From a virus, in UHGV virus genome UHGV-1351772: DNA of 64,000 bases; one strand, 5' to 3'. Positions 10,110 to 39,547 of this stretch are shown piece after piece (within the stretch, counting starts at the first letter, position 1; every line of letters begins with the position of its first letter). Under the pieces are notes generated by a model. The model did no database searches. It was not told where the DNA came from and saw only the letters and a list, made by a program, of their open reading frames with translations. The translations under genes and the position numbers were made by a program.

Positions 10110-10136
10110 AGGATAATATCTATCTCACTTATTTTA
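10110..10136. promoter_or_regulatory. conserved palindromic AT-rich promoter/operator motif (copy a)
   Basis: taggataatatctatctcacttatttt sits between divergent starts at 10082 (-) and 10146 (+); core AGATA-A-TATCT palindrome shared with copies at 23740, 23820, 31621 and 39521. Confidence 0.55.
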
Positions 10137-10145
10137 GGAACGATT

Positions 10146-10469
10146 ATGTTAGACAATTTTATTACCCTAGAAGAATTCATACCTGCGCCTTACACCACGA
10201 CGTGGAAAGTGATGCACGATTACACAGACTATCTGCGTAAACACCCGAAAACTAAAATAGAAAATGTTGACCCACGCTACAGTTGGCCTGAGGTCCACAA
10301 TTTCTACGCCTACTGTAAACTCAAAGGTTACGCCGATATCATTATCTATCCGATGATGCTATTAAACGGGCTAGAAGACCCCATGAATTTCACCCCTGAA
10401 ATCACGCAACTAATCGTACCCGACGTCGGAACGGTTAGTGAGATTATTAGCACCATCGGTAATGATTAA
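10146..10469 (+). CDS. hypothetical protein (107 aa)
   Basis: Plus-strand ORF starting 10 bp after the promoter motif and ending at a bidirectional terminator. Confidence 0.5.
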   Translation: MLDNFITLEEFIPAPYTTTWKVMHDYTDYLRKHPKTKIENVDPRYSWPEVHNFYAYCKLKGYADIIIYPMMLLNGLEDPMNFTPEITQLIVPDVGTVSEIISTIGND

Positions 10470-10500
10470 AAAAAGAAGGGACCGAGTCCCTTCTTTTATA
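10466..10500. terminator. bidirectional intrinsic terminator
   Basis: gaagggac-cga-gtcccttc hairpin flanked by A-run and T-run between convergent genes 10146..10469 (+) and 10507..11886 (-). Confidence 0.65.
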
Positions 10501-10506
10501 CTTCAC

Positions 10507-11886
10507 TTAGCGCGTAAATGGCGAAGTTGCAAATCCACCGAAGCTGCTTTGCGGCTGTCCGCCAAAACTGCTATTCGTTGCAAATGCTGAACTCGTGCTA
10601 AACGCGCTAGTCCCTCCTACGTTCCCGCTAAAAGAATTATTCCCTCCGCCAAAGGTACTTGCCAAAGAACCTCCGGTATTCCCTACACCGAAGTTACTCT
10701 GACCACCGAAAGGTGACACCTTGCGCTCTCCACCAAACGCATCCACAACAGAAATTCGACTTACCATACCGTTGGCAGGGTTAGTTGTTCCGTGCTGCTC
10801 GGCGTAACGTTGCATCGCTGGCGTCAAATTCCCATAAGGACTATGCGTGGCCATGTTACGTTCACGTGCGCGGAAGAATTCCATCGGATCGGACTTATCT
10901 GCTTTATCTGCATCCGATGCACGTTTTTGTGGAATCTGCTGTGGTGCCTGTGCACGATCAATACGGAAATCATGCGCCGTGGTATCACGTTCAGGGCTGT
11001 CAGAACGTGGGCCGGTGTTATACGGTAAGGTCTGAATGACGTTATCGTAAATATCCATATTGTCCAGCTGAGAAATCCATTCATCTTCCAACGGACGTAA
11101 AGAAGTGTGGTCGCGCAATCCCTTAACGACGTTGTTATAGTTCACAACGTACTGCGCCCAACCACGCGCTAAGCAACCGAAATACGGACGCGAATCATTA
11201 GACCCCGTTACGCTCGGATACCAACCGAACACGGTGGTCAATAAACGATGGATAATGATTTTGTCTTGTTTACGTTGAAGCTTCGCAGAGAAGTACATTG
11301 CAGTACCATCTAACGATTCTTCTTCGAACATATTCCGATAATTAGCTACACGGTTAAACTTCACGCCGTCGATAACTAAATCAGACGCAATAAAAAGCTG
11401 GGTGATCTTGTGCTTTTTATCTTTTTCCAATTGTGCATAAACGAACGCCTTAACCGCTTCCCAGGATTTTACCAAACGTTCATCGAACGTCGGATCTTTC
11501 ATCCCTTCGCAAATCTGTTCTGTTAAGAATTTCTTGTAGGATGCAGAACGTACTGCTTTACCACTTGCCCCCGTTTCCAGAATCGCGTCGATTAATGCAA
11601 AGGAACGAATGAACAGGTTCGCATTAATGGATTTCTTCAGGAAACGAATTGTACCTGATTCACCTGCCAGTACCGATTCACACAGCGGATGAAATGCCTG
11701 ACATTCACGACCATCGTCGTCTTCCATGCCACGCTTAATCATCGCTGGGGTGGGAAGCGCCAAACGGCGCTTCACTTTGTTATACGTAAACTCTGCCGGT
11801 TCACCACCGTCACGAGTGAGTAAATCGTTTTCAAAATCGAATCCTTGTGATTTAAGAAACGATTTGTAGAATTCAATAATTTTCAT
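10507..11886 (-). CDS. hypothetical protein with ~85-aa Gly/Ser/Phe-rich (FG-repeat-like) C-terminal tail
   Basis: 459-aa ORF; C-terminus AFGG..PFGG..NFGVG..TFGGG..SFSG..SFGG..SFGGF is low-complexity and FG-rich. Confidence 0.6.
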   Translation of the reverse strand: MKIIEFYKSFLKSQGFDFENDLLTRDGGEPAEFTYNKVKRRLALPTPAMIKRGMEDDDGRECQAFHPLCESVLAGESGTIRFLKKSINANLFIRSFALIDAILETGASGKAVRSASYKKFLTEQICEGMKDPTFDERLVKSWEAVKAFVYAQLEKDKKHKITQLFIASDLVIDGVKFNRVANYRNMFEEESLDGTAMYFSAKLQRKQDKIIIHRLLTTVFGWYPSVTGSNDSRPYFGCLARGWAQYVVNYNNVVKGLRDHTSLRPLEDEWISQLDNMDIYDNVIQTLPYNTGPRSDSPERDTTAHDFRIDRAQAPQQIPQKRASDADKADKSDPMEFFRARERNMATHSPYGNLTPAMQRYAEQHGTTNPANGMVSRISVVDAFGGERKVSPFGGQSNFGVGNTGGSLASTFGGGNNSFSGNVGGTSAFSTSSAFATNSSFGGQPQSSFGGFATSPFTR

Positions 11887-11908
11887 TTAAGAGTCCTTGA
11901 TTAATCTT

Positions 11909-13615
11909 TTACTCGCCGAATGCACCAAAACCAGACACTGGCGCAGGAGTTGACATATCGCTGCCGCCAAAGCTACCGAAGCTACCCAGGCTCGTAGGTG
12001 CAGACACAGGGGCAGTTGGAATATTCGACAGGATATTCGAACGGTTCTGACCACGGTTGAATTCTTGGTACCCTTCTTCCACTTTATTCATCAGCTGCGC
12101 TGTTTCTGCAGCTAACTGGTTCGTGTACTGAAGGTCAGTTGTTGTACCACAATGCAGACGTGCTTTCATGAACGACGCATGAGTATAATACTCAGGCAGC
12201 TCACCATCGATTTCAATTTCAATACGTGAAACCACCCCGACGATACATGTTACGGTCATCTTACAACGAATACGGTTGTGTTTAGTCACTTGCAAGAATA
12301 CGCCTTGTAAGTCACTTAAGAAGCGACGCGCTAACACATCCGGTAATCCGTCTTCAGTTAATGCCCCAACGTTGTGTTTTGACACTTGCAGCAGAGGAGG
12401 TGTTGCAATATCCGCCATACGGTTATCGTAGAAGAAAGTCACTTCACCGATAAGGTTACGAGTGACCACAGGCCCCAGTAACATGGCTAAATCAAATGCC
12501 ACCAACGAACCCTGAGTAGAATAGTTATTACGTCCTACCCAATCATCGGTGCGTTCAATTTCACCAAAACCACGACGAGCCGCGACAGCCAGCGAGTGCG
12601 CAATTGCAGCGTCCACGTCTTCGGGATTAATCACCGCATTACGCAAGTCGCACAGTTTGAATGCTGCACGGTTCGCAACGTTCCAACCGCTAGTCATATC
12701 GGACGTGGCGTTGGATATGGCTGTTCTAAAAGCCTTCACCAACTCGTAACTGTTGAAATTACGCATCACACCGATCTGGCTAAGTTCAGATTCTACCCCA
12801 AGAGAATGATCTCCTGCGAAGAAACTGTCTACTGCGCTCAACTCCGTTTCAATCCCCATGGTATTAATGAAGGAATTGGAGATCGCTGTCACGAAAGATT
12901 CTGGTCGGGTTAATTGACTAGACATCAACTGTGGCGCACGCTGGCAATTAGCGGAGATAACGGTGTTGTTATCCAGCTCAATCTGCTCACCAGCTTTCAC
13001 CACTTTACGTACCATATCAGCTGCTTTCGCGGTAGAAATAACGTCAATGGTGTGCTCTACATAGCTGTCTGCGGTTAATGTCTTGGACAACACATAGTTG
13101 TCTATCAAACGGAAGGAATCCGGGTTGATACGACGTCCACCGAACGCATCAGTGATATACGTACATTGTAACCCGTATATTTCGTTGATATACAGAACCA
13201 TGTCGTCCGGCAGGTGATTAAACATGGATCGCTCTGCCTGGGACGTATACCCGGAAACAACATAACGCGTTTCCTGAGTCCGTGTGTCGTTTAACGAGTT
13301 CGAAACAATAATCGCCACGAAGTTATACACACCAGTATCGCGAGAATTATACGCAAATTGGATTGGTTGCGATTCGTTATCACTCACGTTAATGAATGGA
13401 CGTTCAATGCCTGTTGGGGTATTGTCGAAACCCACAATCTGCCCCAGGGCTTCTTGATAAGCCCGAGAACCTGTTGCTTTATCACCGTGTTCTGCAACCA
13501 CATCCACTAACTCATCCAAAGCGTGCTGCGATTCAAAGAACCCAATACGACGACGAATCTGCTCTGGGATTTCGTACACTGGATACATTTGTAGTTTCAA
13601 AAGTTTCATTGCCAT
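11909..13615 (-). CDS. hypothetical protein with FG-rich C-terminal tail
   Basis: 568-aa ORF ending ...SLGSFGSFGGSDMSTPAPVSGFGAFGE; adjacent to and co-directional with the previous FG-tail gene. Confidence 0.6.
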   Translation of the reverse strand: MAMKLLKLQMYPVYEIPEQIRRRIGFFESQHALDELVDVVAEHGDKATGSRAYQEALGQIVGFDNTPTGIERPFINVSDNESQPIQFAYNSRDTGVYNFVAIIVSNSLNDTRTQETRYVVSGYTSQAERSMFNHLPDDMVLYINEIYGLQCTYITDAFGGRRINPDSFRLIDNYVLSKTLTADSYVEHTIDVISTAKAADMVRKVVKAGEQIELDNNTVISANCQRAPQLMSSQLTRPESFVTAISNSFINTMGIETELSAVDSFFAGDHSLGVESELSQIGVMRNFNSYELVKAFRTAISNATSDMTSGWNVANRAAFKLCDLRNAVINPEDVDAAIAHSLAVAARRGFGEIERTDDWVGRNNYSTQGSLVAFDLAMLLGPVVTRNLIGEVTFFYDNRMADIATPPLLQVSKHNVGALTEDGLPDVLARRFLSDLQGVFLQVTKHNRIRCKMTVTCIVGVVSRIEIEIDGELPEYYTHASFMKARLHCGTTTDLQYTNQLAAETAQLMNKVEEGYQEFNRGQNRSNILSNIPTAPVSAPTSLGSFGSFGGSDMSTPAPVSGFGAFGE

Positions 13616-13645
13616 TGTAAATGCTCCTTTAGGTCAAGCCGAAAA

Positions 13646-15358
13646 TTATTGATTAAACCATGCTACTTCTTCGCATTTCTTTCTGTTTTGAATTAACAGA
13701 AATTCTGCTAACATGTTCTGAAGTCGCGGATGAGGTGAATAGTCCAACATCACTGTCCCACACCGTAACATTCTGGCTGCTTCCGGTGTTGCCCTGAGAT
13801 TGAAGTTGAACGGTGCAATATGTTCACGAACCAACAAGCTGAGAGAATCCTTCAATGTTGATTGTTCGTAAGTATTACGATGCTTACGGTATGCTTGTGG
13901 ATAATATCTATCCGTTTTTATTTTAATCTCATTATCGATTGGCTCGATAGGATACCCGCCATTTAGCGGTGCCCGGATCATTTCACAACTTAACAACTGT
14001 GCAATCTCAGGCATTCCGTAATAGATGTAAACGGCTTGGGATATACCCATCGCGTTCTTAAACGCTTCTGCGTCGATTTCCTTGTATGTACGACGATCTG
14101 CAAATCGGTGCATCACTGCCGCCACCAACCATTCGTAGAGTTCGTAGAAAGGATATTGATGGTTAATGTTGATGGAATCTATCAACACTTTCACATCAGC
14201 GGGAGCAATATCGAGATTCAAAGCACGCACCGCACGACGATAGTCATTAAAGAATTCTTGAGTACGAACGAATTCCTTCATTGGTGCTTTAGTCCGAGCT
14301 TGAACCAGGTCAATCGACGAAGTTTTCCCCTTCTCGCCGTTGAACATGATTTTCTCAGGATTCGCTTTTAGCATCACGTTTTGACCGGAAATTTTTCCCG
14401 CGAAGCCCGTTTCAATTTCTTGCCGAATATTGAAATACATCCCCGCCACGATGTTGTTTTCAACCATCGTACCTGGTGGTAGTTCGGCACCGATTAACTT
14501 CATCGCAATTAAACGGATAACGGCGAACGCTATGATGTATTCCTCTACCATATCCGTACCGTAGCCGCAGATAGATGCCAGGACGGTAAGGTTTGCAGTA
14601 TTAGGTCCTTTACTCCCCCCGTCCTGAACTTTCGAAATCACCGACACTAAAAACTCACGCAACTTTGTAATGGCTGGCAGTGTAGCAATCTCGGTATCAG
14701 ACAACAGTTCCATGCAGTAGGTCAGGTTATAAACACTTTTGCGCTTCGACTCAACAGAAGCACGTGTTGCAGGAAAAGCGTCCAAAATCAAGAATACGGG
14801 AATAAACGGTTTTGTCATCAAAGACAAAATCACCAATTCGTAATAATCTTGTACGATATACGTCATCTCTTTTGGATAATTCGACGACATCTCTTCGTAC
14901 GTTTCGTGGACGTTTTGAGGAATCCACACCGAACCGTGTGGATAAAGCTGGCGGAATCTATCTGCGTGATGAAATTTAGCAATTCTCGCGACGAGCGTGG
15001 GGACGTGTTCACGAATAACTTCTGGGGGTTCATTAGCTAACAACTCTAATTCTTCGTAAACTGAAAACAGTTCGCTTTTCTCTTCAGGTGTTAAAGTTGA
15101 CCAATAACGCTCGATTTCCATGAACATGATTTTATCGTGCGTTACGATCTGTCCGAAACTATCGCGTACGTCTGGCACATTCACGTCTTTACGTCCATTT
15201 CGGAAACCATTAAACGCGACCTCTTTTTCGCCGTACTTTATCACTAAACGGTCACGATTCTTTTCAATGCGCATTTTAAAATCTCCAGGAATAACATAGT
15301 CGTCCACTAAGATAAAATCTATCTCAGATAACTTCGACTGTATTCTACACACATACAC
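13646..15358 (-). CDS. hypothetical protein (570 aa)
   Basis: Long minus-strand ORF in operon context; no motif recognised. Confidence 0.55.
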   Translation of the reverse strand: MYVCRIQSKLSEIDFILVDDYVIPGDFKMRIEKNRDRLVIKYGEKEVAFNGFRNGRKDVNVPDVRDSFGQIVTHDKIMFMEIERYWSTLTPEEKSELFSVYEELELLANEPPEVIREHVPTLVARIAKFHHADRFRQLYPHGSVWIPQNVHETYEEMSSNYPKEMTYIVQDYYELVILSLMTKPFIPVFLILDAFPATRASVESKRKSVYNLTYCMELLSDTEIATLPAITKLREFLVSVISKVQDGGSKGPNTANLTVLASICGYGTDMVEEYIIAFAVIRLIAMKLIGAELPPGTMVENNIVAGMYFNIRQEIETGFAGKISGQNVMLKANPEKIMFNGEKGKTSSIDLVQARTKAPMKEFVRTQEFFNDYRRAVRALNLDIAPADVKVLIDSININHQYPFYELYEWLVAAVMHRFADRRTYKEIDAEAFKNAMGISQAVYIYYGMPEIAQLLSCEMIRAPLNGGYPIEPIDNEIKIKTDRYYPQAYRKHRNTYEQSTLKDSLSLLVREHIAPFNFNLRATPEAARMLRCGTVMLDYSPHPRLQNMLAEFLLIQNRKKCEEVAWFNQ

Positions 15359-15365
15359 GATAAAG

Positions 15366-15385
15366 AGCCCCAGGATATCCTGGGG
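15366..15385 (-). terminator. hairpin, possible terminator
   Basis: gccccagg-atat-cctggggc perfect hairpin between genes; the downstream U-tract is weak. Confidence 0.35.
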
Positions 15386-15407
15386 CTATGTTATAGTTTT
15401 ACATTAT

Positions 15408-16052: not shown

Positions 16053-16110
16053 TTACTTATCCTATTTTTACATTTTCGGAGTGCTCAAACTAACAAAACG
16101 ATCTGTAAAA

Positions 16111-18744: not shown

Positions 18745-18746
18745 CC

Positions 18747-19205: not shown

Positions 19206-19207
19206 GA

Positions 19208-20086: not shown

Positions 20087-20445
20087 CCTCCCATGCTTTC
20101 ACATGGGCACAGACTATATCATAACCGTAGGTATTGCTACCCGTAGGTCTCCCCCACTTCGCCGCTAAACTAAGCAGCTACTCTACTCGGTTTTACCCTT
20201 TCGATAGTCGTTGAACGATTTTCATCGCTGCTGGTTATCCATTATCACAACCCTTAGCATTATTGGTTAGCATAGGTTATCTTACGAATTGTTTCTGACT
20301 TTCGCCACCCTGTCGGGATCGTAAGCTTTAGGGGTTTCCAGCAATTCGAGGGATACGCACTAGAGGTTTCCCGTCTAGTGGGCCAGTGTTTAGCATTAGG
20401 TGCTTTGATGACGCGATCAGAAATACGCAGAGAACATTGTGTTAC
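20084..20445 (-). other. group I self-splicing intron (ORF-less), boundaries approximate (+/- 20 nt)
   Basis: Minus-strand core elements in canonical order: P aattgctggaaa (20335..20346), Q aaccagcagc (20227..20236), R gttcaacgacta (20205..20216), S atgatatagtct (20111..20122), P9 hairpin cccatg-tgaaag-catggg (20090..20107), with a G before the exon-2 frame. Confidence 0.65.
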
Positions 20446-21759
20446 ATCTGTCAGTACCGCTGAGATGAACAATGTCTGAATAGAAAGTTGAACCAATGTT
20501 GGGTTACGCAGAACTTCCAACATTAAGCCGAATCCGCCGGGGGATTCTTTAATCAACTCATTAATAATTTCATGTACCAACGGTACATACTGCATTGCCG
20601 CAAATGCAATGATGCGCTCACATTGTCGAGGTGTATAATCACGTCGACCTAACTTGTTCTCAATGTGAACACTCGCCAACGGAACCAACCAACGCCAAGG
20701 CGCAATAACTTTCAACGCATCATGAGGTTCAGAGATAGGAGAGATAGTCACACGTCCGCCCCACGGTACGTGTGTTGACCCGAGTTTTGCCCGATAGAAC
20801 CCAGGTTTACCTTCCATCACTTCCTGACGATGGTCAATATAGAAATACGCAAGCTGTCGATTCGCTTTGATCGCACGACGAATAATAAATCGTGGTTCGA
20901 TACGGCGTGCATTCGTGTACAACAACGCCACATTTTTTACTGCGTCGATAGCGCTGGTATAAACCGGATCGATAAAAATACCTTGTCGGCGCTCCTCCGT
21001 AACGATCAGTTTTGATGAAATAATCGGAAGGTGTCTTGGAAAGAATGAGAACGATTGTTCCTGAAAGAACTCACGCCATTCTAAGCGCACGCGCTCACTC
21101 TCATAACGGTTATTTTTCGTTGGTGGATAAATCTCCTTCCAAGCTTCCGGAGACGTAAGGATATTAAAGACGGTTCGATGGTGGTCGATAAAGTTTCGAA
21201 TTCCCCGTTCGAAGCCATGTTCGCCGAGTATTCTTTTCACCACGCGAGCACGTGTTCCCTCGTCCTTTTCTGGATGGTAGTACGGATCGATTAGCCACAG
21301 CAGTAAATCAGACCCGCGTTCTACCGTCACTTTGTTACGATTAAATTTTTTCAGCTTAGAGCCAAAGAAGGCATTAAAGAGAGACCAAAAACGTGGATTG
21401 ATAAAGTTACCCATCTCATCGGGAGCGCGTAACCAGACATCAGACGTAATCCGATGTTCAGAAACAACATGTCCGCAATGTGGGCAACGAAGCCCAAGAT
21501 TATAACGATGGGTAATAGGTGATTCGCAGGTCAGACTGCAAATAGGAGCCGAGTTGAGTGTTTCATCAACGATTCGGTTTTGGAGTATTTGGTTAATCAT
21601 CTCCGACGCTTCGATGGTATCCATCGTTGCAGCAACGTCATTGATAATAATCGGTGGTTTGTAGCCTTTTTCCTCCGCTTCTTGTATACAGTCACGTAAC
21701 ATCTTGTCGTGACTAATTAGTCGCCCCGAAATCCCGTAATATTCTAGTTTATGTTCCAC
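20260..21759 (-). CDS. multisubunit RNA polymerase beta-prime subunit, N-terminal part (set A), exon 1; last ~55 codons are probably intron read-through
   Basis: Cys cluster CSLTCES...CPHCGH (zinc ribbon), GKPGFYRAKLGSTHVPWGGRVTISPI matching [27 protein letters not shown], and VLRNPTLVQLSIQTLF matching VLLNRAPTLHRLGIQAF; homology stops ~25 codons before the expected NADFDGD. Confidence 0.6.
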   Translation of the reverse strand: MEHKLEYYGISGRLISHDKMLRDCIQEAEEKGYKPPIIINDVAATMDTIEASEMINQILQNRIVDETLNSAPICSLTCESPITHRYNLGLRCPHCGHVVSEHRITSDVWLRAPDEMGNFINPRFWSLFNAFFGSKLKKFNRNKVTVERGSDLLLWLIDPYYHPEKDEGTRARVVKRILGEHGFERGIRNFIDHHRTVFNILTSPEAWKEIYPPTKNNRYESERVRLEWREFFQEQSFSFFPRHLPIISSKLIVTEERRQGIFIDPVYTSAIDAVKNVALLYTNARRIEPRFIIRRAIKANRQLAYFYIDHRQEVMEGKPGFYRAKLGSTHVPWGGRVTISPISEPHDALKVIAPWRWLVPLASVHIENKLGRRDYTPRQCERIIAFAAMQYVPLVHEIINELIKESPGGFGLMLEVLRNPTLVQLSIQTLFISAVLTDVTQCSLRISDRVIKAPNAKHWPTRRETSSAYPSNCWKPLKLTIPTGWRKSETIRKITYANQ

Positions 21760-21770
21760 GCCGAATCCTC

Positions 21771-21814
21771 AACAAAAAAAGAGAGGGAAGGGACAGGGGG
21801 TTTTCCCCTGTCCC
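21771..21814 (-). terminator. strong intrinsic terminator
   Basis: gggacagggg-(g)tttt-cccctgtccc hairpin followed on the minus strand by CTCTCTTTTTTTGTT, directly after the stop of the 615-aa gene. Confidence 0.7.
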
Positions 21815-21843
21815 TCAACTACTGCTTACTACTTACCAACTTA

Positions 21844-23691
21844 TTAGAAAGTCGGACGCCAGTCAGTTGCAGCGAAGGACATACCGAAATCGCTACCAAA
21901 TGCGTTAGGACCGCTACCAGACAGCGCGAAGTTCTCATTACCCGTGTTAACAAACACAGAGTGAGTGAGGCTGTTCGCTGCGGTAACACCATTCACCTGG
22001 AAGTTGCAGTTTTCAGTAATGTATTCCACCAGTGCTTTACCAAACAGCGGATTGATCGCCAGGTCAGACGCTTCACCCGTTACCTGCGGCTGTTTGCTAC
22101 CGAACATGGACGCAGCCATTTTCAGCAGGTACAGACGCTGGTCACGCGCATTCAGATAGCGGTGAGAGTAGGACTGTGCACTGATGTAGTCGATCGCATC
22201 GCGTTGGTTATCACCCACTTTAGTCAGAGCGGAAACCAAGTCCATATCCTGGAAGCTGCGTTTCTGGCTGTTGCTGAAATACTGACCAGAGATGGTCGGG
22301 CAACCGGCAATAACAACGTGTTTGCACTCGAAGTTGGTGACATTGCCCAGCAGTGCTTTGAAGCGAGTGCTGAACTTAGTCGCGCCGTTGCTGGCCATGT
22401 TATCCAGGATATTGAACAGGGTGTACAGTGCGTTGGTGTTACCCATCCCGATTTCGCTCAGGAGAGTAGACAGGCCACCGATACCGTTACCTGCACGATG
22501 GTTCACCACCAGGGCCGCAGTCGGGTTAGCGAAGGTGTCCAGGCATTTCTCGATAACTTCACGGTTACCGTCGATTTTGCTCAGGTCAGGTTTTTCGCTG
22601 CCCCATTCTACATACTCCAGAACGCGGGAGAAGCGGCGATCGGTTTTGTTCAGCGACTGCATGAAACGTTCACGCCAGCCACCAATAGTGGCGATTTGTG
22701 CGAACGCGGCCAGTTCAATCAGCTGACGCTCGATAGGTGCCATTGCCCCAGAGGACTGAGAATCCATCAGGGAAACAACCACTTCGGCTTCCAGCTGACG
22801 CAGGTCCTGAGTACCGTTAGTCAGGGTTTGAGGTTTACCTTTATGGCGGAGGTTGATGTAACCAACACCTGCAACGCTCGGATAATTCTGGAGGCGTTCA
22901 GAAGAGAACAGCGTCGGGTTATTATCGTTGTTGCCAGTGCGAGTGTGGTCAACCACAACCATCAGGTCAGCACGTTGTGCAGAACCGTTAACGTCAGTTA
23001 CAGAACCTTCTTCAACTACGCTGACTTGCGCGGTGAAGCGATCAGAACGGGTCATTTTCAGGTAGCCCAGGTAGCCGGAATGACGACCGAAGATACCCAA
23101 TGCAATCTGGCCCATGAGCTGGTTAGCCCATTCTTCGTTCATGGTTTTACCCAGTTCCGGTACGCAGTTCATTACCATGAACTGTACGCTTGGCAGATTG
23201 TGCTGAGTTGCAATCTGGTTAGTGATGTTGTTCATCACACCTTCTTGACTGAACAGCTGCGCCAGGGTGTAGTAGTTTTCTTTACCGTTGATTTCGTAGA
23301 AACGGATGGACTGGCCATGTTCAAAGAACAGGATACCATAGAGCCATTCGTTATGGTTATCGCCGGACGGACCAGCCACGTATGCAGCAGAACCCATTTC
23401 AGAGTTGATGCCGTCAATAACACCCCAACGGAAGTTACGCAGGTATGTGTTCTTCTCCGCCATCTTCTCAATCAGGCTAGTGAACTGAGAAGCAGTGGAC
23501 ACGAAAGACATGTATCCGAAAGCTTTATCGAAAGTAGAGATGTTTTTAGACATCCCACCAAAAGCGTTGGCCGCATTGGTATTATCCACAGTAGCAGCTC
23601 CCGCGCCACCGAAAGACGGAATTGGATCTGCAGCGGAACCAGCAGCACCAGTCACAACGTCGTTTTGATTGTCAATAAACTCTTTAGCCAT
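21844..23691 (-). CDS. abundant 615-aa protein: candidate chimallin (phage-nucleus shell protein); alternative is major capsid protein
   Basis: Strong optimal-codon bias (ggt, cgt, ctg, aac, ttc), two tandem promoter motifs upstream and a strong terminator downstream; ~67 kDa with Gly/Ala/Ser-rich N- and C-terminal segments; directly upstream of the beta-prime N gene, as chimallin is in phiKZ (recalled synteny). Confidence 0.45.
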   Translation of the reverse strand: MAKEFIDNQNDVVTGAAGSAADPIPSFGGAGAATVDNTNAANAFGGMSKNISTFDKAFGYMSFVSTASQFTSLIEKMAEKNTYLRNFRWGVIDGINSEMGSAAYVAGPSGDNHNEWLYGILFFEHGQSIRFYEINGKENYYTLAQLFSQEGVMNNITNQIATQHNLPSVQFMVMNCVPELGKTMNEEWANQLMGQIALGIFGRHSGYLGYLKMTRSDRFTAQVSVVEEGSVTDVNGSAQRADLMVVVDHTRTGNNDNNPTLFSSERLQNYPSVAGVGYINLRHKGKPQTLTNGTQDLRQLEAEVVVSLMDSQSSGAMAPIERQLIELAAFAQIATIGGWRERFMQSLNKTDRRFSRVLEYVEWGSEKPDLSKIDGNREVIEKCLDTFANPTAALVVNHRAGNGIGGLSTLLSEIGMGNTNALYTLFNILDNMASNGATKFSTRFKALLGNVTNFECKHVVIAGCPTISGQYFSNSQKRSFQDMDLVSALTKVGDNQRDAIDYISAQSYSHRYLNARDQRLYLLKMAASMFGSKQPQVTGEASDLAINPLFGKALVEYITENCNFQVNGVTAANSLTHSVFVNTGNENFALSGSGPNAFGSDFGMSFAATDWRPTF

Positions 23692-23739
23692 TTTACTTAA
23701 TCCTTATAAGGTTTAATACAATTGTAGTGTTGGTTCACG

Positions 23740-23765
23740 TAGATAATATCTAGCTAAGATATTTT
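23740..23765. promoter_or_regulatory. conserved palindromic promoter motif (copy b1)
   Basis: tagataatatctagctaagatatttt in the divergent region between 23691 (-) and 23900 (+). Confidence 0.55.
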
Positions 23766-23819
23766 AGAATACACGTAAAACACACATAGCTTAAAATGAT
23801 TAACTACCGAACCATCACA

Positions 23820-23845
23820 TAGATAATATCTTTCTCAGATATTTT
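23820..23845. promoter_or_regulatory. conserved palindromic promoter motif (copy b2)
   Basis: tagataatatctttctcagatatttt, a second copy 80 bp from b1 with 22 of 26 positions identical. Confidence 0.55.
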
Positions 23846-23899
23846 TCAATGTGAGTGAGACTGTGACCGTTTCCTATGTGTAACCCCAAGGAGTAAGTC

Positions 23900-25193: not shown

Positions 25194-27506
25194 TCATTCG
25201 TCGTCAAAAACCTCTTCTTCGTCTTCATCTTCTTCGTCATCCCCTGCCCTCTCCGATTTCTTAACGTATTGTACTTCCGCCAATTCCTTGTACAATTCGT
25301 CTTTCTCCTCGGCCTTGTCGTAGAAATCTGACAACAACCTCATCCTGTTTTTATCCATCATGAACACACCTAAGCATTCGAGAATGTGATAGTACGGTTC
25401 AACCGTAGAGAAAGCAGTACGACGGATATCTGCAATATCGATCAGTTCTTTAGGGATACCATAGTTTTCCACCAAATGTTCTGGCAGAATCAGTGTTTTA
25501 TATTTACGGAAGTTTGTCTCCTCAAACCACGCCGATGCACCGTTCTTGATAATCGGATCTTCGATACTGTCAATCCACTCTTTAATCTTCGTTTTGTTTT
25601 CCAATGTTACCGGAAGCTTCACTGCATCATACGGCGGTTCTTCCAAATAACCAAACTTCGGACCAAAGATAGCATTATACATTCGGTGGTAATGGTAGTT
25701 CTTCTCATCCTTCTCGTTATAAGCGCTACGTTCCTTGATGTTCGTCGTTTTCAAATACCCTGGATTCCCAGAACGAATAGAATCCATAATCGTGTGTTCG
25801 ATTTGGGCAACCTTTTCCAGCAACGGAATGATTTCGATCTGATCGCCACGGGCAACAACTTCACATAACCCTTTGATGGTGTTCTTAAACTCCTTCATGA
25901 TAATCGGAGGAATGTTAGACGTACGTAAAGACACACCTTTTACTTCCAGCTCGGGATCTTTTTTCAGCTGGCCTTCCTGTCCAGTAATCAATGAGAAGTA
26001 ATGTTTTGCTTTAGTGGTTAATGCAAACGAATCAAACTTAAATTCATTCTTCATTGCATACAGGAACAAACGCTCCTTCGCCACACCGATGTTTGCTGAC
26101 ATACTCGCCATCAAGTGCCGTAAGTGCTGTGTCGCAATATAGATCATCGCATTGGAAACACGGGTAGCTACCTCACCGTAATGTTTACCGGTGTACCAGA
26201 TTGCCCACCATTGCGCAGTCATCATTGTAGAGTCAGTATCAGATACTACCCCTACACGACGAACCACATCCGGCATTCGAGCAATATTGATTGGTAAGTT
26301 TTTCGTGGTAAGAATATTGCGAATCAGTAGCGCGTATTTACCGATCGTTTTCTGTAAGAACACTGCGGAACGAATTAATTCTTTATACCCATCCTGCTGT
26401 TCCCACGGCAACGGTTTTTTATTACCATCAAGTTTCTTAACGTCACTGAACGCTTTACCCATCGGTACTACGTCGGTACGGAACTGCGAGATAATAATCT
26501 GCATATCACCATCGATGGTCTTCTCAGCAGCAACCCAGTCCGTATCAGTCCAGCCTTCGGTATCAACACGCACATCTGGGGTAATTAATGCGCCAATAAA
26601 GTCGCGCATGAATTTATCGTTGTATTTAGCCAGGTGGAAAAAATCACCCATGTAAACAAACGCCGCTCGCGTCAACGCTGATACATTACTAACGTAATGC
26701 TCAACGAACTCCATCCCCTCTTCGTTCTTAAAGTAGAAATCGGCAGAATAATGAATAACCTCCATCACCTCTTCTACCGACGGATAATGAAGCTCATACG
26801 TCTCCATACATTTCTTAAAGCTATTCCAATCGGTTAAAGTACCGATAGATAAGAAATGATCGATAATGCGTGACGGGGTTTCGTAATGTCTATTACCTCC
26901 TAATAAACGCTCATTTCCAGCATTGCCGAACGAAGTTGCAGTACGACAAGTGGACGTCAGTGTGGAGTGTGAGGACTGATTAAAAAGGATCGTGAACGGG
27001 GAGGAAAATGCGCCCGACATACCGTTGTTCAGCGTCTTGACCGCATTCTGTTCGTTCTTTTTGTTGATATTTAATACTACATTGCCCGCTGCTGCTGCTG
27101 CAAACATTTCCTTTTTTACCGCATCACGTTTCGCTACGTTAGCTGCTGTGAATTCAGACAACTTAGAACGTTTGACATGTTCGGGCAAATAAAAAGTTAA
27201 CGAAGGTGCGGAGATAATCTGTTTGTCAATGACGGTTTTAAATAACTTATCGACGGTAGTGTATTTTTCCTCACGATCGCCCGTTTTCTGATTACGCACC
27301 CACATCTTACACACGGGTGATTCGGTTGCTAACTCACCGCCAGGTGCAATAAGAGCATCAACTTCCTGACGACAAAACTCTAAAGGGTATTTTTGTGCGG
27401 TCACGTTATGAATGTATAACGCGACTTGTTCGCGGTAGGCATCGTTGACATCGATATCACGATGGTATTCATCTACCGTTAAACGAAAAGGAGAAATGTA
27501 TTCCAC
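25194..27506 (-). CDS. family-B-like DNA polymerase, polymerase-domain protein (tentative)
   Basis: VVSDTDS (motif C YGDTDS-like), KTLNNGMSGAF (motif B-like KxxxNSxYG), later KAKHY (KKRY-like), in that order; strongly acidic C-terminal tail DDEEDEDEEEVFDDE; no exonuclease motifs seen. Confidence 0.4.
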   Translation of the reverse strand: MEYISPFRLTVDEYHRDIDVNDAYREQVALYIHNVTAQKYPLEFCRQEVDALIAPGGELATESPVCKMWVRNQKTGDREEKYTTVDKLFKTVIDKQIISAPSLTFYLPEHVKRSKLSEFTAANVAKRDAVKKEMFAAAAAGNVVLNINKKNEQNAVKTLNNGMSGAFSSPFTILFNQSSHSTLTSTCRTATSFGNAGNERLLGGNRHYETPSRIIDHFLSIGTLTDWNSFKKCMETYELHYPSVEEVMEVIHYSADFYFKNEEGMEFVEHYVSNVSALTRAAFVYMGDFFHLAKYNDKFMRDFIGALITPDVRVDTEGWTDTDWVAAEKTIDGDMQIIISQFRTDVVPMGKAFSDVKKLDGNKKPLPWEQQDGYKELIRSAVFLQKTIGKYALLIRNILTTKNLPINIARMPDVVRRVGVVSDTDSTMMTAQWWAIWYTGKHYGEVATRVSNAMIYIATQHLRHLMASMSANIGVAKERLFLYAMKNEFKFDSFALTTKAKHYFSLITGQEGQLKKDPELEVKGVSLRTSNIPPIIMKEFKNTIKGLCEVVARGDQIEIIPLLEKVAQIEHTIMDSIRSGNPGYLKTTNIKERSAYNEKDEKNYHYHRMYNAIFGPKFGYLEEPPYDAVKLPVTLENKTKIKEWIDSIEDPIIKNGASAWFEETNFRKYKTLILPEHLVENYGIPKELIDIADIRRTAFSTVEPYYHILECLGVFMMDKNRMRLLSDFYDKAEEKDELYKELAEVQYVKKSERAGDDEEDEDEEEVFDDE

Positions 27507-27559
27507 GGCTGACCTCTAAAAAGGCAGTTTAACTCGGCTATAAGGAGGGTGGGTAACGT

Positions 27560-27600
27560 GAAAAAAAAAGAAAGAAGTATGTCCTCTCCGAAGAGAGGAC
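27560..27600 (-). terminator. intrinsic terminator
   Basis: gtcctctc-cgaa-gagaggac hairpin followed on the minus strand by a long T-run, after the stop of 27609..28028. Confidence 0.65.
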
Positions 27601-27608
27601 ATTTTCGA

Positions 27609-31269: not shown

Positions 31270-31589
31270 CCGCAAAGCGGAAGCGTAGGATGTTTTTTCC
31301 ATCGCTGCCCAGAAGTTATGATAAACTGTAGCTGGATTGAAGTGTATTTTGACCACGTTTGCACAACTCCATTTTTATAAGAGAAAGGACTACTGTGGTC
31401 ACGACCCAACGCACTGATCATAAACCACGCATCCGAACCAAAATATCTTTCTGCCACCTTCAACCGATCTCCAGGTAAATTGTGAACACCCGGAAAAATC
31501 AGTTCTTGTATCGCTTCTAAAATCTCCTCAGGACGATAGCGAACTGAATGGCTAGAGTCTAGCAGAAAACCAAATAGCACGCGCGTCAT
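31266..31589 (-). CDS. hypothetical protein (107 aa), first gene of the small-gene cassette
   Basis: Start 32 bp downstream of promoter motif c with SD aaggag. Confidence 0.5.
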   Translation of the reverse strand: MTRVLFGFLLDSSHSVRYRPEEILEAIQELIFPGVHNLPGDRLKVAERYFGSDAWFMISALGRDHSSPFSYKNGVVQTWSKYTSIQLQFIITSGQRWKKHPTLPLCG

Positions 31590-31620
31590 TAACGTTAATA
31601 CTCCTTTAAGGGAACATCAT

Positions 31621-31647
31621 TAAGATAATATCTATACAAAAAATATT
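31621..31647. promoter_or_regulatory. conserved palindromic promoter motif (copy c)
   Basis: taagataatatctatacaaaaaatatt upstream of the small-gene cassette. Confidence 0.55.
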
Positions 31648-31755
31648 CGAGTATAGTGCGCACAGGAAGGGCACAGAGTGTATTTTTTAGTAAGGCAGGG
31701 TTGGACTATTACCCGATCCTATGAACCGTTTTACAGAGCCTATTAGGAGCACGCA

Positions 31756-32568: not shown

Positions 32569-32569
32569 C

Positions 32570-33003: not shown

Positions 33004-33022
33004 TTTTCTCTCCCACTATAAC

Positions 33023-33427: not shown

Positions 33428-33463
33428 GGTACCACCTCCTATAAATACATACCAGTACCGTAA

Positions 33464-33494
33464 AAATCAAAAAAAATGGGGACGTATAGTCCCC
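33464..33494 (-). terminator. intrinsic terminator
   Basis: ggggac-gtata-gtcccc hairpin followed on the minus strand by ATTTTTTTTG. Confidence 0.6.
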
Positions 33495-33521
33495 TAATCA
33501 CCCTCTATAGCTGATTTATAG

Positions 33522-33962
33522 TTATAGTAGCTCTACGGCATGACGCTCGTGGTAAAGCTCCGCCAACTGTTTCGTTTTAATCCGTAATTCGCCTCGGTCG
33601 TAAACTAATACCCGACCTGCGCCGTTTGTTCCTAACTCTGTGTAAAGTGCTAACCCGTACCGTCTTACAAATTCAATAGCTGGAAACGTAAATTCTTCGT
33701 CATCACAACGAAACACCAACATACACCACGGGCTCGGGTTTAAGTGCTTACGTTCTTTCCCATCCGCCCACCGTAAACTAAATTCATTTCGATTACGATT
33801 CAGCACCCGCTCAACAAATCGTTCTACTAACTTACCAGTCGGTCCATCTTTGGGTAGTGCTTGCCACACCGAGAAACGGCGTGACAAAAACGGTCGAATC
33901 ACCGCTGCTTCATCAAACGAATACCCCAAACACATCAAACCCTCAATGGCATCTATTTTCAT
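33522..33962 (-). CDS. hypothetical protein (146 aa)
   Basis: Minus-strand ORF; a weaker promoter-motif copy (acatctatctctaaaaattt, 34021..34040) lies upstream. Confidence 0.5.
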   Translation of the reverse strand: MKIDAIEGLMCLGYSFDEAAVIRPFLSRRFSVWQALPKDGPTGKLVERFVERVLNRNRNEFSLRWADGKERKHLNPSPWCMLVFRCDDEEFTFPAIEFVRRYGLALYTELGTNGAGRVLVYDRGELRIKTKQLAELYHERHAVELL

Positions 33963-34187
33963 TTTACCTGCTCCTAAAAAGTCGAATTAAAACGCTTAGT
34001 ACCAACGTTCATACAGGTAACATCTATCTCTAAAAATTTGCGATAAAAAAAGAATATACCTACCCCCTTTCGGAGGTAGGTACGTTCCCTGTCATCGGCA
34101 ATGAAACTACAGGATTAAAACCCTTCAGGGCATGAGAATGGGCGTTCTCGAAGGGTGGGCTTTTAGCTTTCGGCGGAGCTAAACTGG

Positions 34188-35640: not shown

Positions 35641-35680
35641 CTCGTTTTCTGTGTTGAGAATGAACTTACTGGCTAAAATC

Positions 35681-35756
35681 TGGCGGGGGTGGGAAGTTTC
35701 GAACTCCCAACCTTCGGTTTTGGAGACCGCTGCACCACCAATTGTGCTACACCCCC
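35681..35756 (-). tRNA. tRNA-Trp (anticodon CCA), 76 nt with encoded CCA
   Basis: Hand-folded cloverleaf from the reverse complement: acceptor GGGGGTG/CACCCCC, D-stem GCAC/GTGC, anticodon loop CUCCAAA (U33, CCA, A37), T-arm GGGAG-TTCGAAA-CTTCC; anticodon and T arms nearly identical to E. coli tRNA-Trp. Confidence 0.8.
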
Positions 35757-35763
35757 TAATACA

Positions 35764-36626: not shown

Positions 36627-37518
36627 ATTAAAATCTCCTGTCGTGGTCTGTGTCACACCAACAGGAAATCCTGTAAAAAAATAATTCAGCTGCGTACCGG
36701 CGTTTCTCAACGGGAGTACGCACCCCTCTCGTCTTTGCGAGCCGTCAAGCTAGAGGACATCACACTGCCAGCGCTACCTGGAGCAGGGTCATTCGACGCA
36801 ACGTCGTAATTCGCATTTTGGCCGCACCTCTGGGAGCGTATCCCACCGTCGGCTGCCCGCAGGTAAGTTCTACGGACCTTTCGCCAACGTCGCTCCCAGA
36901 GGCTGCCACGGTTCACTCGGATTTTCTCATGTGGTCCACGCGTCACTGATAGCGCGGGTTCCCCAACACTCGTAAGTCGGGGAACGGTACCGAGCACCTG
37001 AACTCTGGGGATTCCAAAAATCCCTCGGGGTAAGTACGATTCGCAAATCGATTTTCAAACCCCATAGTAAAACAAACTCCAGTGTTAGGCTGAACGTTTT
37101 GTTTTTCCCAGTACACGGCGAAATAAATTCCATGCACTCGAAAAAACAACCCCCAAACCAACACCCGGTCAGGGGGCTTCGAGCTCTGCTGAATCTTCGC
37201 AGACAGAAATCGTGTTTGAGCTGTGAGCAGTAAACTCCTGAACTCCGAAAAATCTTCGTGGTTGGATTTGTAAATCATCCCACGCAAATCCTCCGAACAT
37301 ACCATAGGGTTTTAACGTTCGAAAAAGGGGAATGGGTTTTACCCCCCTCGGTCAGGTGTTCAGGGTAGACCCCCTACCCGATCCCCCAGGTGGGGATTTT
37401 ACCCTGGTGAATTACCCCGGGTTCGATTTTCGGATTTTCTGGAAAATACCGCTCACCGATCCCTACCCCCTCAGGGGGGTCAGACCGAGATCAGATCTCA
37501 TAATAAGGATCGCGCGCG

Positions 37519-37680
37519 TTTTATATATATTTATATATAATATATATTATATATAATAATTATTATATTAATAAATATATTAATATATTTATTTAAATAA
37601 ATAATTAAATAATACCTAAAGGTATTATTATTTTGATCCTAAAGGAATAATATATTTATAAATAAATATATTATACTATA
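37519..37680. other. ~160-bp almost pure A+T core: candidate DNA-unwinding element of a replication origin
   Basis: Only a handful of G/C across 37519..37680, with internal inverted repeat aataatacc-taaa-ggtattatt, inside a 1.65-kb gene-free island. Confidence 0.5.
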
Positions 37681-37700
37681 CGCGCGTGCGTACGCACGCG
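37681..37700. repeat. alternating purine-pyrimidine CG palindrome (cruciform/Z-DNA-prone)
   Basis: cgcgcgtgcgtacgcacgcg: perfect 18-bp palindrome cgcgtgcgtacgcacgcg inside a fully alternating 20-mer, abutting the AT core; a shorter gatcgcgcgcg sits on the other flank (37508..37518). Confidence 0.6.
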
Positions 37701-38361
37701 TATAAGGAAGAGATCTTGAGATCAGATTTTTGAGAGAGTTAAAAATTTAAGATCGATCCGAGAGACTTAGTGTCTCTCGAAGAGTATTAAAAAATTTAAA
37801 AGATCAAAAAACCAAAGCTAGAGAACTACTCAACCTGAATCTTCAGTGTGTGAAGATTCAGTAAGTTGATCAATCCAGCTGATCCGCTAGTACGCGAAGC
37901 GTGAATGTTTTTTTGATCGTCGCGGCGGCCGGTCCGCCGACCCGAGGGTGGGGTGGAACTGGTCGAGGGGAATGCCCCTCAGGCGCTCTCAATCGCGCTG
38001 TAACGAGTTAAACGGGGTTCTGGTACCCAAGTGTACCCCTTGAGGAGATTTTTGCGTCAAAATGCGTTCTAGAGCGTTTTACGATGGGGTGGGTTTTCGA
38101 CCCACTCAGGGATAGGGGTTGGCGTGACAGCTCGAACGACAAAATCGTGGTTTCATGGCGTTGAGTGAAAATAAATTCAAAACCCACAACCAAAAACACC
38201 CTCAAATTCTTCGTAGGAAGCTCTCTGACGAGATAAACGTGGGTAAGGGGTACGAACGTACCGCCTGGAAAGAAAAATGCGTTAGAATCGCTCTCAGCGC
38301 GTTTTTGATTTTTGGGCAAAAAAATAAAACGGGGGAGACTTCGGTCTCCCCAGAATATTTT

Positions 38362-39486
38362 TTACAGAGTCGTCAGTTCTTTTGACGGATAGTACAGTTT
38401 CACATCGACCAAACTGTAACCGGTGGCGTAGAACACCTGATTTCCGACCGAAGCAATAAACCCTTCAGGGTCGATAACGTCAACCGAGAAATCGGAATCG
38501 AATAGCCAGGTTTCTTGTTCCCCTTCCCGTTCGAAAACGGCAGCGTAACGCCCGTATTCTGGGCCTCGGCGGAAACGAAACAGCGTTAATCCTGTCTCAC
38601 GTTCTAAGCCATAAATCACCCCATTTTCTTCGTAGATTTCAGCGCGATTACAGCGTGTAACCGTCAACAACGCAGGCCGTTGTGTCGGGATTGTTTTAAA
38701 CGGTGAAGGCCCATCGTATGTCGTTGAAACCCAATCACCGAGACTGTCTAACGCCAGTGCTCGATACGCGATAGGTGACTTGTAGTTACACAACCTGTTG
38801 CCCTCGGTGTACATCGTGTATTCGATGCGTAACGTAGTACCGATGATGTCGTTCAAACTCAGTTTGTAGTGCGCTAACTGGGCTTGTATACGACAGGACA
38901 GAATTGTACACAGGAAAGTGTGACCCTCTGTAGAACGGCACACAACTCCGTAATCGGTCACTGCCAGTAACGTGGCATCTGTTTTACGGACGGGTTCCAG
39001 GCGAAACACCTCATTTTCAGTTTCTACGAGGAACTGCGAAACCGCTTGGTTTCTGGATTTAGCTTTAATCGTATCGAACACATCACCCGCTTTTACGATT
39101 AACGGTTCTACCACGTTTACCTGAAACGGCAGCGGTTTAGTTGGGTATTGTCCCAACGTTGTAATCGTTACTGAGTTGAGTTCTGGGTCCGATGCGTCAG
39201 GATCACCAGACAACCAATACGTTAGCCATTTCGACAACGTCTGGGGAATGACGCGCGTGGTGTAAAACAGAATTTCGCCATGTAAACCTGCCTCTGCCAA
39301 TTCGCGTGCAAGAAACGAGTTGACCGCGTCGTAGGTACCGTTGCGCAAGATGTCCATACCCCCGACACGAACCAAATCACAAATTACGCCGTGTGGAAGA
39401 ACCCACATTTTGACGTTTTGATTTCGGTCGATGGTACCTTCGCGCAGCATTCTGTGCCAAACGGGTTTACGTAAGTAATTTCTCAT
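38362..39486 (-). CDS. hypothetical protein (374 aa)
   Basis: Minus-strand ORF, first gene after promoter motif d. Confidence 0.55.
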   Translation of the reverse strand: MRNYLRKPVWHRMLREGTIDRNQNVKMWVLPHGVICDLVRVGGMDILRNGTYDAVNSFLARELAEAGLHGEILFYTTRVIPQTLSKWLTYWLSGDPDASDPELNSVTITTLGQYPTKPLPFQVNVVEPLIVKAGDVFDTIKAKSRNQAVSQFLVETENEVFRLEPVRKTDATLLAVTDYGVVCRSTEGHTFLCTILSCRIQAQLAHYKLSLNDIIGTTLRIEYTMYTEGNRLCNYKSPIAYRALALDSLGDWVSTTYDGPSPFKTIPTQRPALLTVTRCNRAEIYEENGVIYGLERETGLTLFRFRRGPEYGRYAAVFEREGEQETWLFDSDFSVDVIDPEGFIASVGNQVFYATGYSLVDVKLYYPSKELTTL

Positions 39487-39520
39487 TTTAAAACTCCTTT
39501 AGGTAGAATAAGACTCTCAC

Positions 39521-39547
39521 TAGGATAATATCTATCCGTAATTATTT
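39521..39547. promoter_or_regulatory. conserved palindromic promoter motif (copy d)
   Basis: taggataatatctatccgtaattattt between divergent starts at 39486 (-) and 39560 (+). Confidence 0.55.

Follow-up and report, generated by a model that had tools for sequence, protein, structure and literature searches.

Candidate directional early promoters of a virion RNA polymerase in an uncultured SPN3US-like jumbo phage

An AT-rich, near-palindromic element recurs at gene junctions of an uncultured, SPN3US-like jumbo phage known from metagenomic data, and this raises the question of whether it is a promoter, which polymerase would read it, and in which direction. The whole stretch of DNA analysed, 64,000 nucleotides long, is referred to here as the window. 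A preliminary description had placed five to seven copies in it. Their presence at those places is far beyond chance, but their number has to be corrected, as nine exist. All nine lie on the minus strand and are co-oriented with the gene downstream. In our judgement they are likely to be directional early promoters read by an injected multisubunit virion RNA polymerase (RNAP); the start site, the polymerase used, and the timing are predictions drawn from the DNA itself and from analogy with better-studied phages. The nine sites are as follows.

10106..10140, minus strand: P10106, candidate early promoter, from -34 to the predicted +1 G at 10106 (39.7 and 33.9 bits), in the divergent gap 10083-10145, 24 nt upstream of the start codon (10082) of a beta-like gene of the non-virion RNAP (nvRNAP).
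13894..13928, minus strand: P13894, candidate intragenic early promoter, inside CDS 13646..15274, 279 nt upstream of the start codon at 13615.
15305..15339, minus strand: P15305, candidate early promoter, preceded by a terminator (15387..15366, minus strand), 31 nt upstream of the start codon at 15274.
23736..23770, minus strand: P23736, proximal member of a candidate tandem pair, 45 nt upstream of the start codon (23691) of the putative chimallin orthologue.
23816..23850, minus strand: P23816, distal member of the same pair, 125 nt upstream of the start codon at 23691.
31618..31652, minus strand: P31618, candidate early promoter, heading a small-gene cassette, 29 nt upstream of the start codon at 31589.
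34010..34044, minus strand: P34010, candidate early promoter, preceded by a terminator (34083..34056, minus strand), 48 nt upstream of the start codon at 33962.
39518..39552, minus strand: P39518, candidate early promoter, 32 nt before the ATG at 39486.
54313..54347, minus strand: P54313, candidate early promoter, preceded by a terminator (54394..54366, minus strand), 54 nt before the ATG at 54259.

With a matrix derived from the window, these sites score 30.7-43.7 bits, while the next best match reaches 7.7 bits and the maximum over 100 randomisations is 17.9 bits. A second matrix, built from the sites of relatives only and from none of the window, returns exactly the same nine (25.4-44.0 bits; next best 9.4; random maximum 18.5). 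The copies at 34021 and 54323, previously regarded as weaker relatives, are full members of the family (32.7-39.3 bits with the window-derived and relatives-only matrices), and two further copies had not been listed: one at 13897, inside CDS 13646..15274 on the minus strand, and one at 15308, after a terminator and ahead of the real ATG at 15274. Eight of the nine sites are intergenic, against an intergenic fraction of 6.9% for the window (p = 4e-9). Five of these eight lie in divergent gaps and three after terminators between same-strand genes; together with the intragenic copy, the latter contradict the view that the motif occurs only in divergent intergenic regions. At these three sites the minus strand reads terminator, motif, ribosome-binding site, and ATG, in that order, and at seven of the nine the predicted leader is 24-54 nt long. 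An IMG/VR pattern scan for ATAGATATTATCNNNNTG, aimed at the remaining sites of this phage, gave, among the matches listed, mostly single chance matches in unrelated contigs.

On the minus strand, the window copies share the consensus TC.AA.AAAT.T.AGATAGATATTATC-(5N)-G, a two-part element of about 35 bp in total. Its AT-rich, over-represented core, AGATAGATATTATC, spans -19 to -6, and an A-tract lies upstream at about -29, with TC.AA at -32 to -28. What had been described as an A/T-rich tail some 8 nt after the motif is, in the minus-strand reading, this upstream A-tract. A G stands six bases 3' of TATTAT in 9/9 window copies and in 50/50 sites of a family alignment drawn from five genera, over which A-29, T-12, T-10, A-8, and G+1 are invariant, as is A-13 over the first 36 family sites counted. 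The exact 14-mer TAGRATAATATCTA is found in the window only at 10109 and 39521 (0 expected), and the 31621 copy differs from it by one mismatch. In the copies at 23740 and 23820 the sequence is TAGATAATATCT, shorter by one base than the consensus originally proposed, which makes them true copies in a shifted register.

Conservation in relatives extends to the position of the sites as well as to their bases. Each of the nine is matched in SPN3US, a phage whose proteins are only about 50% identical to those encoded here, by a site in the same orientation and at the equivalent position; the orthologues of P39518 and P54313, for instance, are found at SPN3US 238200, before gp003, and at 223296, before gp017. 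Comparison with Asesino, ChrisDB, and CR5 covered the seven sites from 10106 to 34010, and all seven recur in these phages, save that no counterpart of P34010 was found in CR5, while SPN3US, Asesino, and ChrisDB have one. In all four relatives, P10106 has an orthologous copy in the same orientation ahead of the same gene, and the tandem pair ahead of the shell gene is kept in all five phages. Genome-wide, SPN3US holds 24 matches, of which 23 are on the coding strand, co-oriented with the downstream gene, and none lies ahead of an annotated virion, terminase, or sheath gene. Two IMG/VR contigs encode an identical shell protein. In the stretch upstream of the shell gene, the only one aligned, one of them equals the window, and four single-base differences set the other apart, each of them within or beside the distal promoter; these contigs were dropped for footprinting as too close to the window.

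The intragenic P13894 is unusual for a promoter, lying as it does inside a gene and far from the next start codon. It occupies one and the same codon column in each of the five phages; third codon positions are identical in 3 of its 4 informative columns, as opposed to 15 of 113 elsewhere in the gene (Fisher p = 0.011). This excess conservation at synonymous positions shows the copy, within this alignment, to be constrained beyond its coding role.

The genes downstream of the sites, and those that lack them, bear on which polymerase may be involved. Four features of the window, all on the minus strand, matter here.

5746..10082, minus strand: two nvRNAP subunit genes downstream of P10106, homologues of phiKZ gp71-73 and gp74.
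20260..21759, minus strand: nvRNAP subunit gene, phiKZ gp55-like (PDB 7ogp chain A, 4.5e-32), following the putative chimallin orthologue.
21844..23691, minus strand: putative chimallin orthologue, downstream of the tandem P23736/P23816.
59389..63555, minus strand: RNAP beta-like gene, 1388 aa (phrog_3148), in a gene order matching SPN3US gp025 to gp017.

The two genes in 5746..10082 have PHROG hits and match chains C and D of PDB 7ogp at 2.4e-29 and 1.1e-31, and it is by such PDB homology that the nvRNAP set is assigned. One further beta-like gene is present, that of 1388 aa. Going by its gene order, it probably belongs to the virion set and encodes a subunit of the virion RNAP that would read these promoters. 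The product of 21844..23691 is 51% identical to SPN3US ACQ60_gp244, which has been called a diverged chimallin (PMC9365700). Searched singly or as a profile of five sequences, the protein matched no solved structure, those of chimallins included, and nothing was found in Pfam; the assignment as a putative chimallin orthologue draws on that report together with gene order relative to the gp55 homologue. Copies had been described upstream of the beta gene, the chimallin-like gene, and the small-gene cassette, and P10106, P23736/P23816, and P31618, respectively, are found there. The reported lack of the motif ahead of the terminase and sheath genes is likewise borne out, since scans of the whole window with both matrices find no match before these genes or before the 1388-aa RNAP gene. 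The homologues of gp71-73, gp74, and gp55 are early genes in phiKZ and AR9 (PMC13282480), and the early status of the genes downstream of the window sites is proposed from these two phages.

Taken with a sequence and spacing like those of AR9, the nvRNAP and chimallin-orthologue genes downstream, and the lack of sites at the virion RNAP, terminase, and sheath genes, these observations favour the suggestion, already made in the preliminary description, of an early promoter class read by a virion-packaged RNAP. The virion RNAP would recognise the extended AT-rich element near -10 (-19 to -6) together with the upstream A-tract and its invariant A-29, and would initiate at the conserved G six bases past TATTAT, giving leaders of 24-54 nt that end in a strong ribosome-binding site. 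A first wave of transcripts would then supply the non-virion RNAP, the nuclear-shell protein, and the products of the small-gene cassettes, while virion genes without the motif would wait for this second polymerase. A literature search returned no mapped transcript 5' ends, transcriptome, or rifampicin data for SPN3US-like phages, and a search for the motif strings matched unrelated papers only.

Such elements are expected for this phage group, as every jumbo phage encoding these polymerases has been reported to carry a motif of this kind before its early operons (PMC5312081, PMC7598289). The mapped early promoter of AR9 is AAATATATATTAT-(6N)-G+1 (PMC5312081), and transcription starts 6 nt past the consensus in phiKZ and phiR1-37 as well (PMC5312081; PMC7598289). 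AR9 shares with the window the ATATTAT core followed by six bases and a G, an A-rich upstream part, and sites ahead of early operons, including some in divergent gaps next to late genes; it has about 40 sites per genome, and one of its early promoters lies inside a late gene, which recalls P13894. Unlike AR9, the window has motif flanks that contain G/C (AGATA...TATC) and an invariant A at -29, and its genome contains thymine instead of uracil; its starts are predicted, whereas those of AR9 are mapped. In phiKZ, which belongs to the same phage family, 28-32 early promoter sites consist of an AT-rich extended -10 box and a T-rich upstream part (PMC8244752, PMC13282480), and drive, as the sites here would, nvRNAP subunit genes and the shell gene, gp54. 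Leaders there are typically 31-40 nt long, compared with the 24-54 nt predicted at seven sites of the window. The consensus letters differ, the upstream part being A-rich in the window. phiKZ gp54 has two starts and the tandem pair suggests the same for its orthologue, although the second gp54 start has a middle-type motif, whereas both window copies are early-type. Finally, as cited in PMC7598289, Lavysh et al. (2016) predicted by computer early-promoter motifs for every RNAP-encoding jumbo phage, over-represented, like those of the window, ahead of presumed early operons. Going by that citation, their prediction probably already covers SPN3US, whose sites match those of the window one for one.

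One rival reading, quite improbable, would make the elements strong host sigma-70 promoters, in which TATTAT would be the -10 box, the A-tract would work like an UP element, and host RNAP would transcribe the early genes. TATTAT agrees with TATAAT at 5/6 positions and lies at -12 to -7 counted from the conserved G, the DNA upstream is A-rich, and the known hosts of the relatives are all Enterobacterales. T4-type early promoters likewise combine such a -10 element with an AT-rich region upstream. In sigma-70 promoters, too, six bases separate the -10 element from the start, and spacing alone thus leaves room for the host enzyme. However, no TTGACA-like -35 hexamer is found at the usual 16-18 bp spacing. 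The TC.AA element is 14 bp away from TATTAT. The reading was rejected since a minus-strand consensus scan calls none of the nine sites. Sigma-70-like sites are, moreover, fewer than in shuffles (13 vs 22.6 and 10 vs 15.4). Conservation runs through the spacer and is strongest at -19 to -13 and at C-6, positions that sigma-70 reads little. The homologous motif in AR9 and phiKZ works without host RNAP, an independence known for these two phages and extended here to the SPN3US clade by analogy.

If the elements are promoters of the virion RNAP, their symmetry needs to be considered, as the preliminary description suggested that a single palindromic element could serve both directions or, equally, be the site of a dimeric regulator. 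In most window copies, the near-palindrome GATA-T-TATC does make up an inverted repeat of 9-11 bp. Across the family, the 9-bp palindrome is intact in only 24/50 sites, with departures that are one-sided and uncompensated. In CR5 the left arm has decayed to ACATA or ATATA, while TTATC-(5N)-G is kept. A-29, T-10 (at the centre), and G+1 are asymmetric positions, each invariant in 50/50 sites, and the orientation towards the downstream gene is fixed in 9/9 window and 23/24 SPN3US sites. By these measures the element points one way and is not a two-way palindrome. In addition, the plus-strand genes at 23900 and 31756 have a conserved TATG element of their own.

Two compact junctions, 10083-10145 and 39487-39559, bear on this point as well: their plus-strand genes, at 10146 and 39560, have 63-73 bp upstream and no TATG, and at the SPN3US junction 191601 (minus)/191621 (plus) each strand has a G at six bases from the core and, past it, a ribosome-binding site and an ATG. 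It is conceivable, if doubtful, that the core at the two window junctions fires both ways, serving an early minus-strand operon and the small gene opposite. We know of no bidirectional promoter described for a sigma-less multisubunit polymerase.

An operator role for GATA-T-TATC, as the target of a dimeric phage regulator beside or instead of a promoter role, is highly improbable. Apart from the inverted repeat itself, it could draw on SPN3US having at least one helix-turn-helix protein, gp165, encoded just downstream of one such site, but the symmetry is not maintained, the CR5 left arm has decayed, the invariant positions are asymmetric, and the orientation is fixed. The early promoters of phage N4 are hairpins, with a stable stem of 5-7 bp and a 3-nt loop. 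A DNA hairpin or cruciform promoter like that of the N4 virion RNAP, which the inverted repeat could form with a stem of 4-5 bp around a 3-nt loop, is barely credible and was rejected by folding, since its predicted single-stranded DNA stability (-0.4 to -1.1 kcal/mol) is no better than that of shuffles. The stem is neither conserved nor compensated, and the polymerase of this phage, a multisubunit enzyme, is unrelated to that of N4.

For annotation, this means that the elements should not be labelled two-way palindromic operators. The 50-site, five-genus alignment bears on how a sigma-less virion RNAP finds its promoters, as it shows which bases are invariant within a two-part element that is longer than the ~10 nt usually quoted. 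Read as promoters of the virion RNAP, the sites would mark early genes, the usual place of anti-host and anti-defence functions, and would provide a candidate map of the first transcription wave in an uncultured nucleus-forming jumbo phage. As SPN3US and the Erwinia phages have the same sites, this map would extend to them.

The window can be recognised from sequence comparison as a piece of an uncultured SPN3US-like jumbo phage: its ~21-26 kb region matches Erwinia jumbo phages only, at ~75% nucleotide identity and over short conserved stretches; the 615-aa product of gene 21844..23691 is ~51-53% identical to SPN3US, Asesino, and phiEaH2 proteins; and an identical protein is encoded by two IMG/VR metagenomic contigs (221 and 225 kb), one of which shows no difference from the window across the aligned intergenic stretch. 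The minus strand carries 60 of the 68 genes, along with one tRNA gene.

35681-35756 (-): tRNA-Trp (anticodon CCA), with a counterpart at the matching place in SPN3US, Asesino, and ChrisDB.

A ~170-bp block at 37520-37690 is 89% A+T and packed with overlapping palindromes, and 13 GATC sites cluster around it within ~460 bp (37458-37915; window mean, 3.25 per kb). This segment, which corresponds to the start/end point of the SPN3US record, looks like a replication origin or genome-end region.

A preliminary description had reported palindromic AT-rich motifs, each followed by an A/T-rich tail, in divergent intergenic regions only. The copies are real and stronger than it stated, but their geometry had been misread. 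Its exact 14-mer matches the window at 10109 and 39521 only; the copy at 31621 is one base off, those at 23740 and 23820 keep the core but in a register shortened by one base, and a two-mismatch scan yields two overlooked copies, at 13897 and 15308. Aligned on the minus strand, all copies have GATAGATATTATC preceded by an A-rich stretch, and in each a G stands exactly six bases past TATTAT. This G, the predicted start (+1), lies at 10106, 13894, 15305, 23736, 23816, 31618, 34010, 39518, and 54313. With a matrix made from these nine sites, their scores are 30.7-43.7 bits, versus 7.7 for the runner-up place and at most 17.9 in 100 randomised sequences. Because that matrix is circular, an independent one was built with the window sites left out, using just 41 sites in related phages; it recovers the same nine sites at 25.4-44.0 bits (runner-up, 9.4; random maximum, 18.5).

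All nine copies are on the minus strand and eight are intergenic, versus 6.9% of the window (p = 4e-9). They are not confined to divergent regions, as three (15305, 34010, and 54313) separate same-strand genes and the copy at 13897 lies within gene 13646..15274. The conserved G precedes the next minus-strand ATG by 24, 29, 31, 32, 45, 48, or 54 nt at seven sites, by 125 nt for the distal member (23816) of a tandem pair with 23736, and by 279 nt for the intragenic copy; the supposed tail thus forms the upstream portion of a promoter on the minus strand. On that strand, the three sites between same-strand genes follow one order (gene, terminator hairpin with T-run, motif, ribosome-binding site, ATG), which reads as a terminator-promoter-gene layout. 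The copy at 15308 is located 3' of the terminator and 31 nt ahead of a well-placed ATG at 15274, which has a ribosome-binding site. Since terminator and promoter both fall inside 15275-15358, the GTG start listed at 15358 (gene 13646..15358) is probably wrong.

Such an arrangement can be set beside mapped early promoters of jumbo phages. In AR9, 41 of these share AAATATATATTAT-(6N)-G+1 and are active without new protein synthesis, and transcription likewise starts 6 nt past the consensus in phiKZ and phiR1-37 (PMC5312081). According to a review, a conserved AT-rich motif centred near -10 is detectable by computer ahead of the early operons of every RNAP-encoding jumbo phage, and the non-virion RNA polymerase (nvRNAP) set is made of early-gene products (PMC7598289). 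phiKZ has 28-32 early promoters, including those of nvRNAP subunits, and transcription of its shell gene begins at two sites (PMC13282480, PMC8244752). The window motif agrees with the AR9/phiKZ class in sequence (the ATATTAT core and a G after a six-base gap), in the genes it targets, and in how many sites a genome carries. Its membership of the early-promoter class, already proposed in the preliminary description, is thus well supported, and from this likeness we infer start site, enzyme, and timing. The RNA polymerase genes of the window, the first three of them downstream of motif copies, are as follows.

7845..10082 and 5746..7845 (-): nvRNAP subunit homologues, matching chains C and D of the solved phiKZ nvRNAP (gp71-73 and gp74).
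20260..21759 (-): gp55-like nvRNAP subunit, matching chain A (gp55).
59389..63555 (-): 1388-aa RNA polymerase-like gene heading a block in SPN3US gp025-to-gp018 gene order; motif absent.

The gp55-like gene stands behind 21844..23691, just as phiKZ gp55 stands behind the shell protein gp54. The SPN3US orthologue of 21844..23691 is ACQ60_gp244, reported as a diverged chimallin homologue with 10% identity (PMC9365700). Our own sequence searches with 21844..23691 gave no confirmation of chimallin identity; the 617-aa size and gene order of ACQ60_gp244 are consistent with a shell protein. In an older numbering, gp244 is the label of another SPN3US protein, a small one of the virion. A 649-aa open reading frame (21751-23700, +) runs antisense across the entire shell-protein gene; it is probably not a gene, and the protein-family match there falls in the minus-strand frame. 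Both matrices place no motif before the DNA polymerase gene (25194..27506), nor, as originally noted, before those for terminase (41229..43337) and sheath (48525..50582).

The window matrix was also run on the syntenic segment (36-39 kb) of four relatives from four genera, SPN3US, Asesino, ChrisDB, and CR5. It gave six or seven sites in each, all co-oriented with the genes and laid out as in the window.

Ahead of the nvRNAP beta gene.
Within the large gene that precedes nvRNAP beta, in its 3' part (intragenic copy).
Before that large gene.
Before the shell-protein gene, a tandem pair spaced by 77-93 nt.
Before the small-gene cassette.
Before a gp261-like gene (no counterpart found in the CR5 syntenic region).

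In alignments of two intergenic regions, the promoter blocks form identity islands. The intragenic copy occupies an identical codon column in all five phages, and its third codon positions are identical in 3 of 4 informative columns, versus 15 of 113 elsewhere in the gene (p = 0.011). Across the whole SPN3US genome, the window-only matrix finds 24 matches above 10 bits, 23 of them on the coding strand and none before genes annotated as virion protein, head, tail, sheath, or terminase; counterparts of sites 54313 and 39518 lie at 223296 and 238200. A closely related contig has TTAGCT (L002, 2855-2860) in the spacer of its distal shell-gene promoter where the window has TGAGAA (23831-23836); TTAGCT is also what the proximal copy has, which suggests that the tandem promoters have exchanged sequence.

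Base constraint helps to weigh other readings. A-29, T-12, T-10, A-8, and G+1 are invariant across 50 family sites (window plus relatives); in the first 36 counted, A-13 is invariant and A-17, A-15, T-9, T-7, and C-6 nearly so. Host sigma-70 promoters would fit the TATTAT-to-G spacing, but the -35 box is missing at the usual distance, a sigma-70 scan calls none of the nine sites, and conservation peaks where sigma-70 reads little. A two-way element or dimeric operator, both suggested earlier from the palindrome, is not supported: all nine copies share one orientation, just 24 of the 50 sites keep the 9-bp palindrome GATA-T-TATC unbroken, and changes in one arm are uncompensated in the other. 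In CR5, for instance, the left arm reads ACATA or ATATA while TTATC-(5N)-G is retained. It seems that the symmetry follows from the alternating A/T core and was not itself selected. An N4-type hairpin promoter is not supported either, predicted DNA hairpins at the motif being negligible.

Some plus-strand genes of the divergent gaps appear to be served otherwise. TATG lies 23 nt ahead of ATG 23900 and TATGA ~36 nt ahead of ATG 31756, both invariant in all five phages, and ahead of the sheath gene (48525) two copies of TATGA are shared with SPN3US (regions 23850-23899, 31700-31755, and 48463-48524). In all three genes a conserved TATG(A) stands 23-36 nt from the ATG. These elements resemble the phiKZ late element T-3ATG+1, and the three genes are probably late. 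In at least two divergent gaps (23900 and 31756), the palindrome is, judging by sequence, not serving the plus-strand gene. The compact junctions 10083-10145 (63 bp) and 39487-39559 (73 bp) hold no conserved TATG, the one present in SPN3US at the second being absent from the window. The start codons of plus-strand genes 10146 and 39560 are confirmed by protein N-terminus conservation, and their 63-73 bp of upstream space is wholly taken by the minus-strand early promoter. At one SPN3US junction, both strands carry a G six bases from the core, so that two-way use in special cases, though improbable, might occur.

Further candidate elements were observed. Many small early-region genes have the box (A)ATCGAC(T/C)AT(T)A 5-10 nt upstream of their ribosome-binding site, often 3' of a hairpin starting at the predicted +1; this box may be either a second promoter or an RNA element.

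Window: 33978-33992; 54282-54296.
SPN3US: 4479, 23833, 57148, 65457, 94282, 114032, 166646, 167594, 223320, 224199.

At 27507-27608 and 33428-33521, behind terminators, the DNA polymerase gene and one other gene are preceded by TTTTT(C)ACG-N13-15-yTTATAG(G), a pattern also found in SPN3US, ahead of gp248 and gp260; it may represent a further (middle) class of promoters. As for the nine-copy motif, it is what one would expect in this phage family, to which the window adds a new uncultured member.
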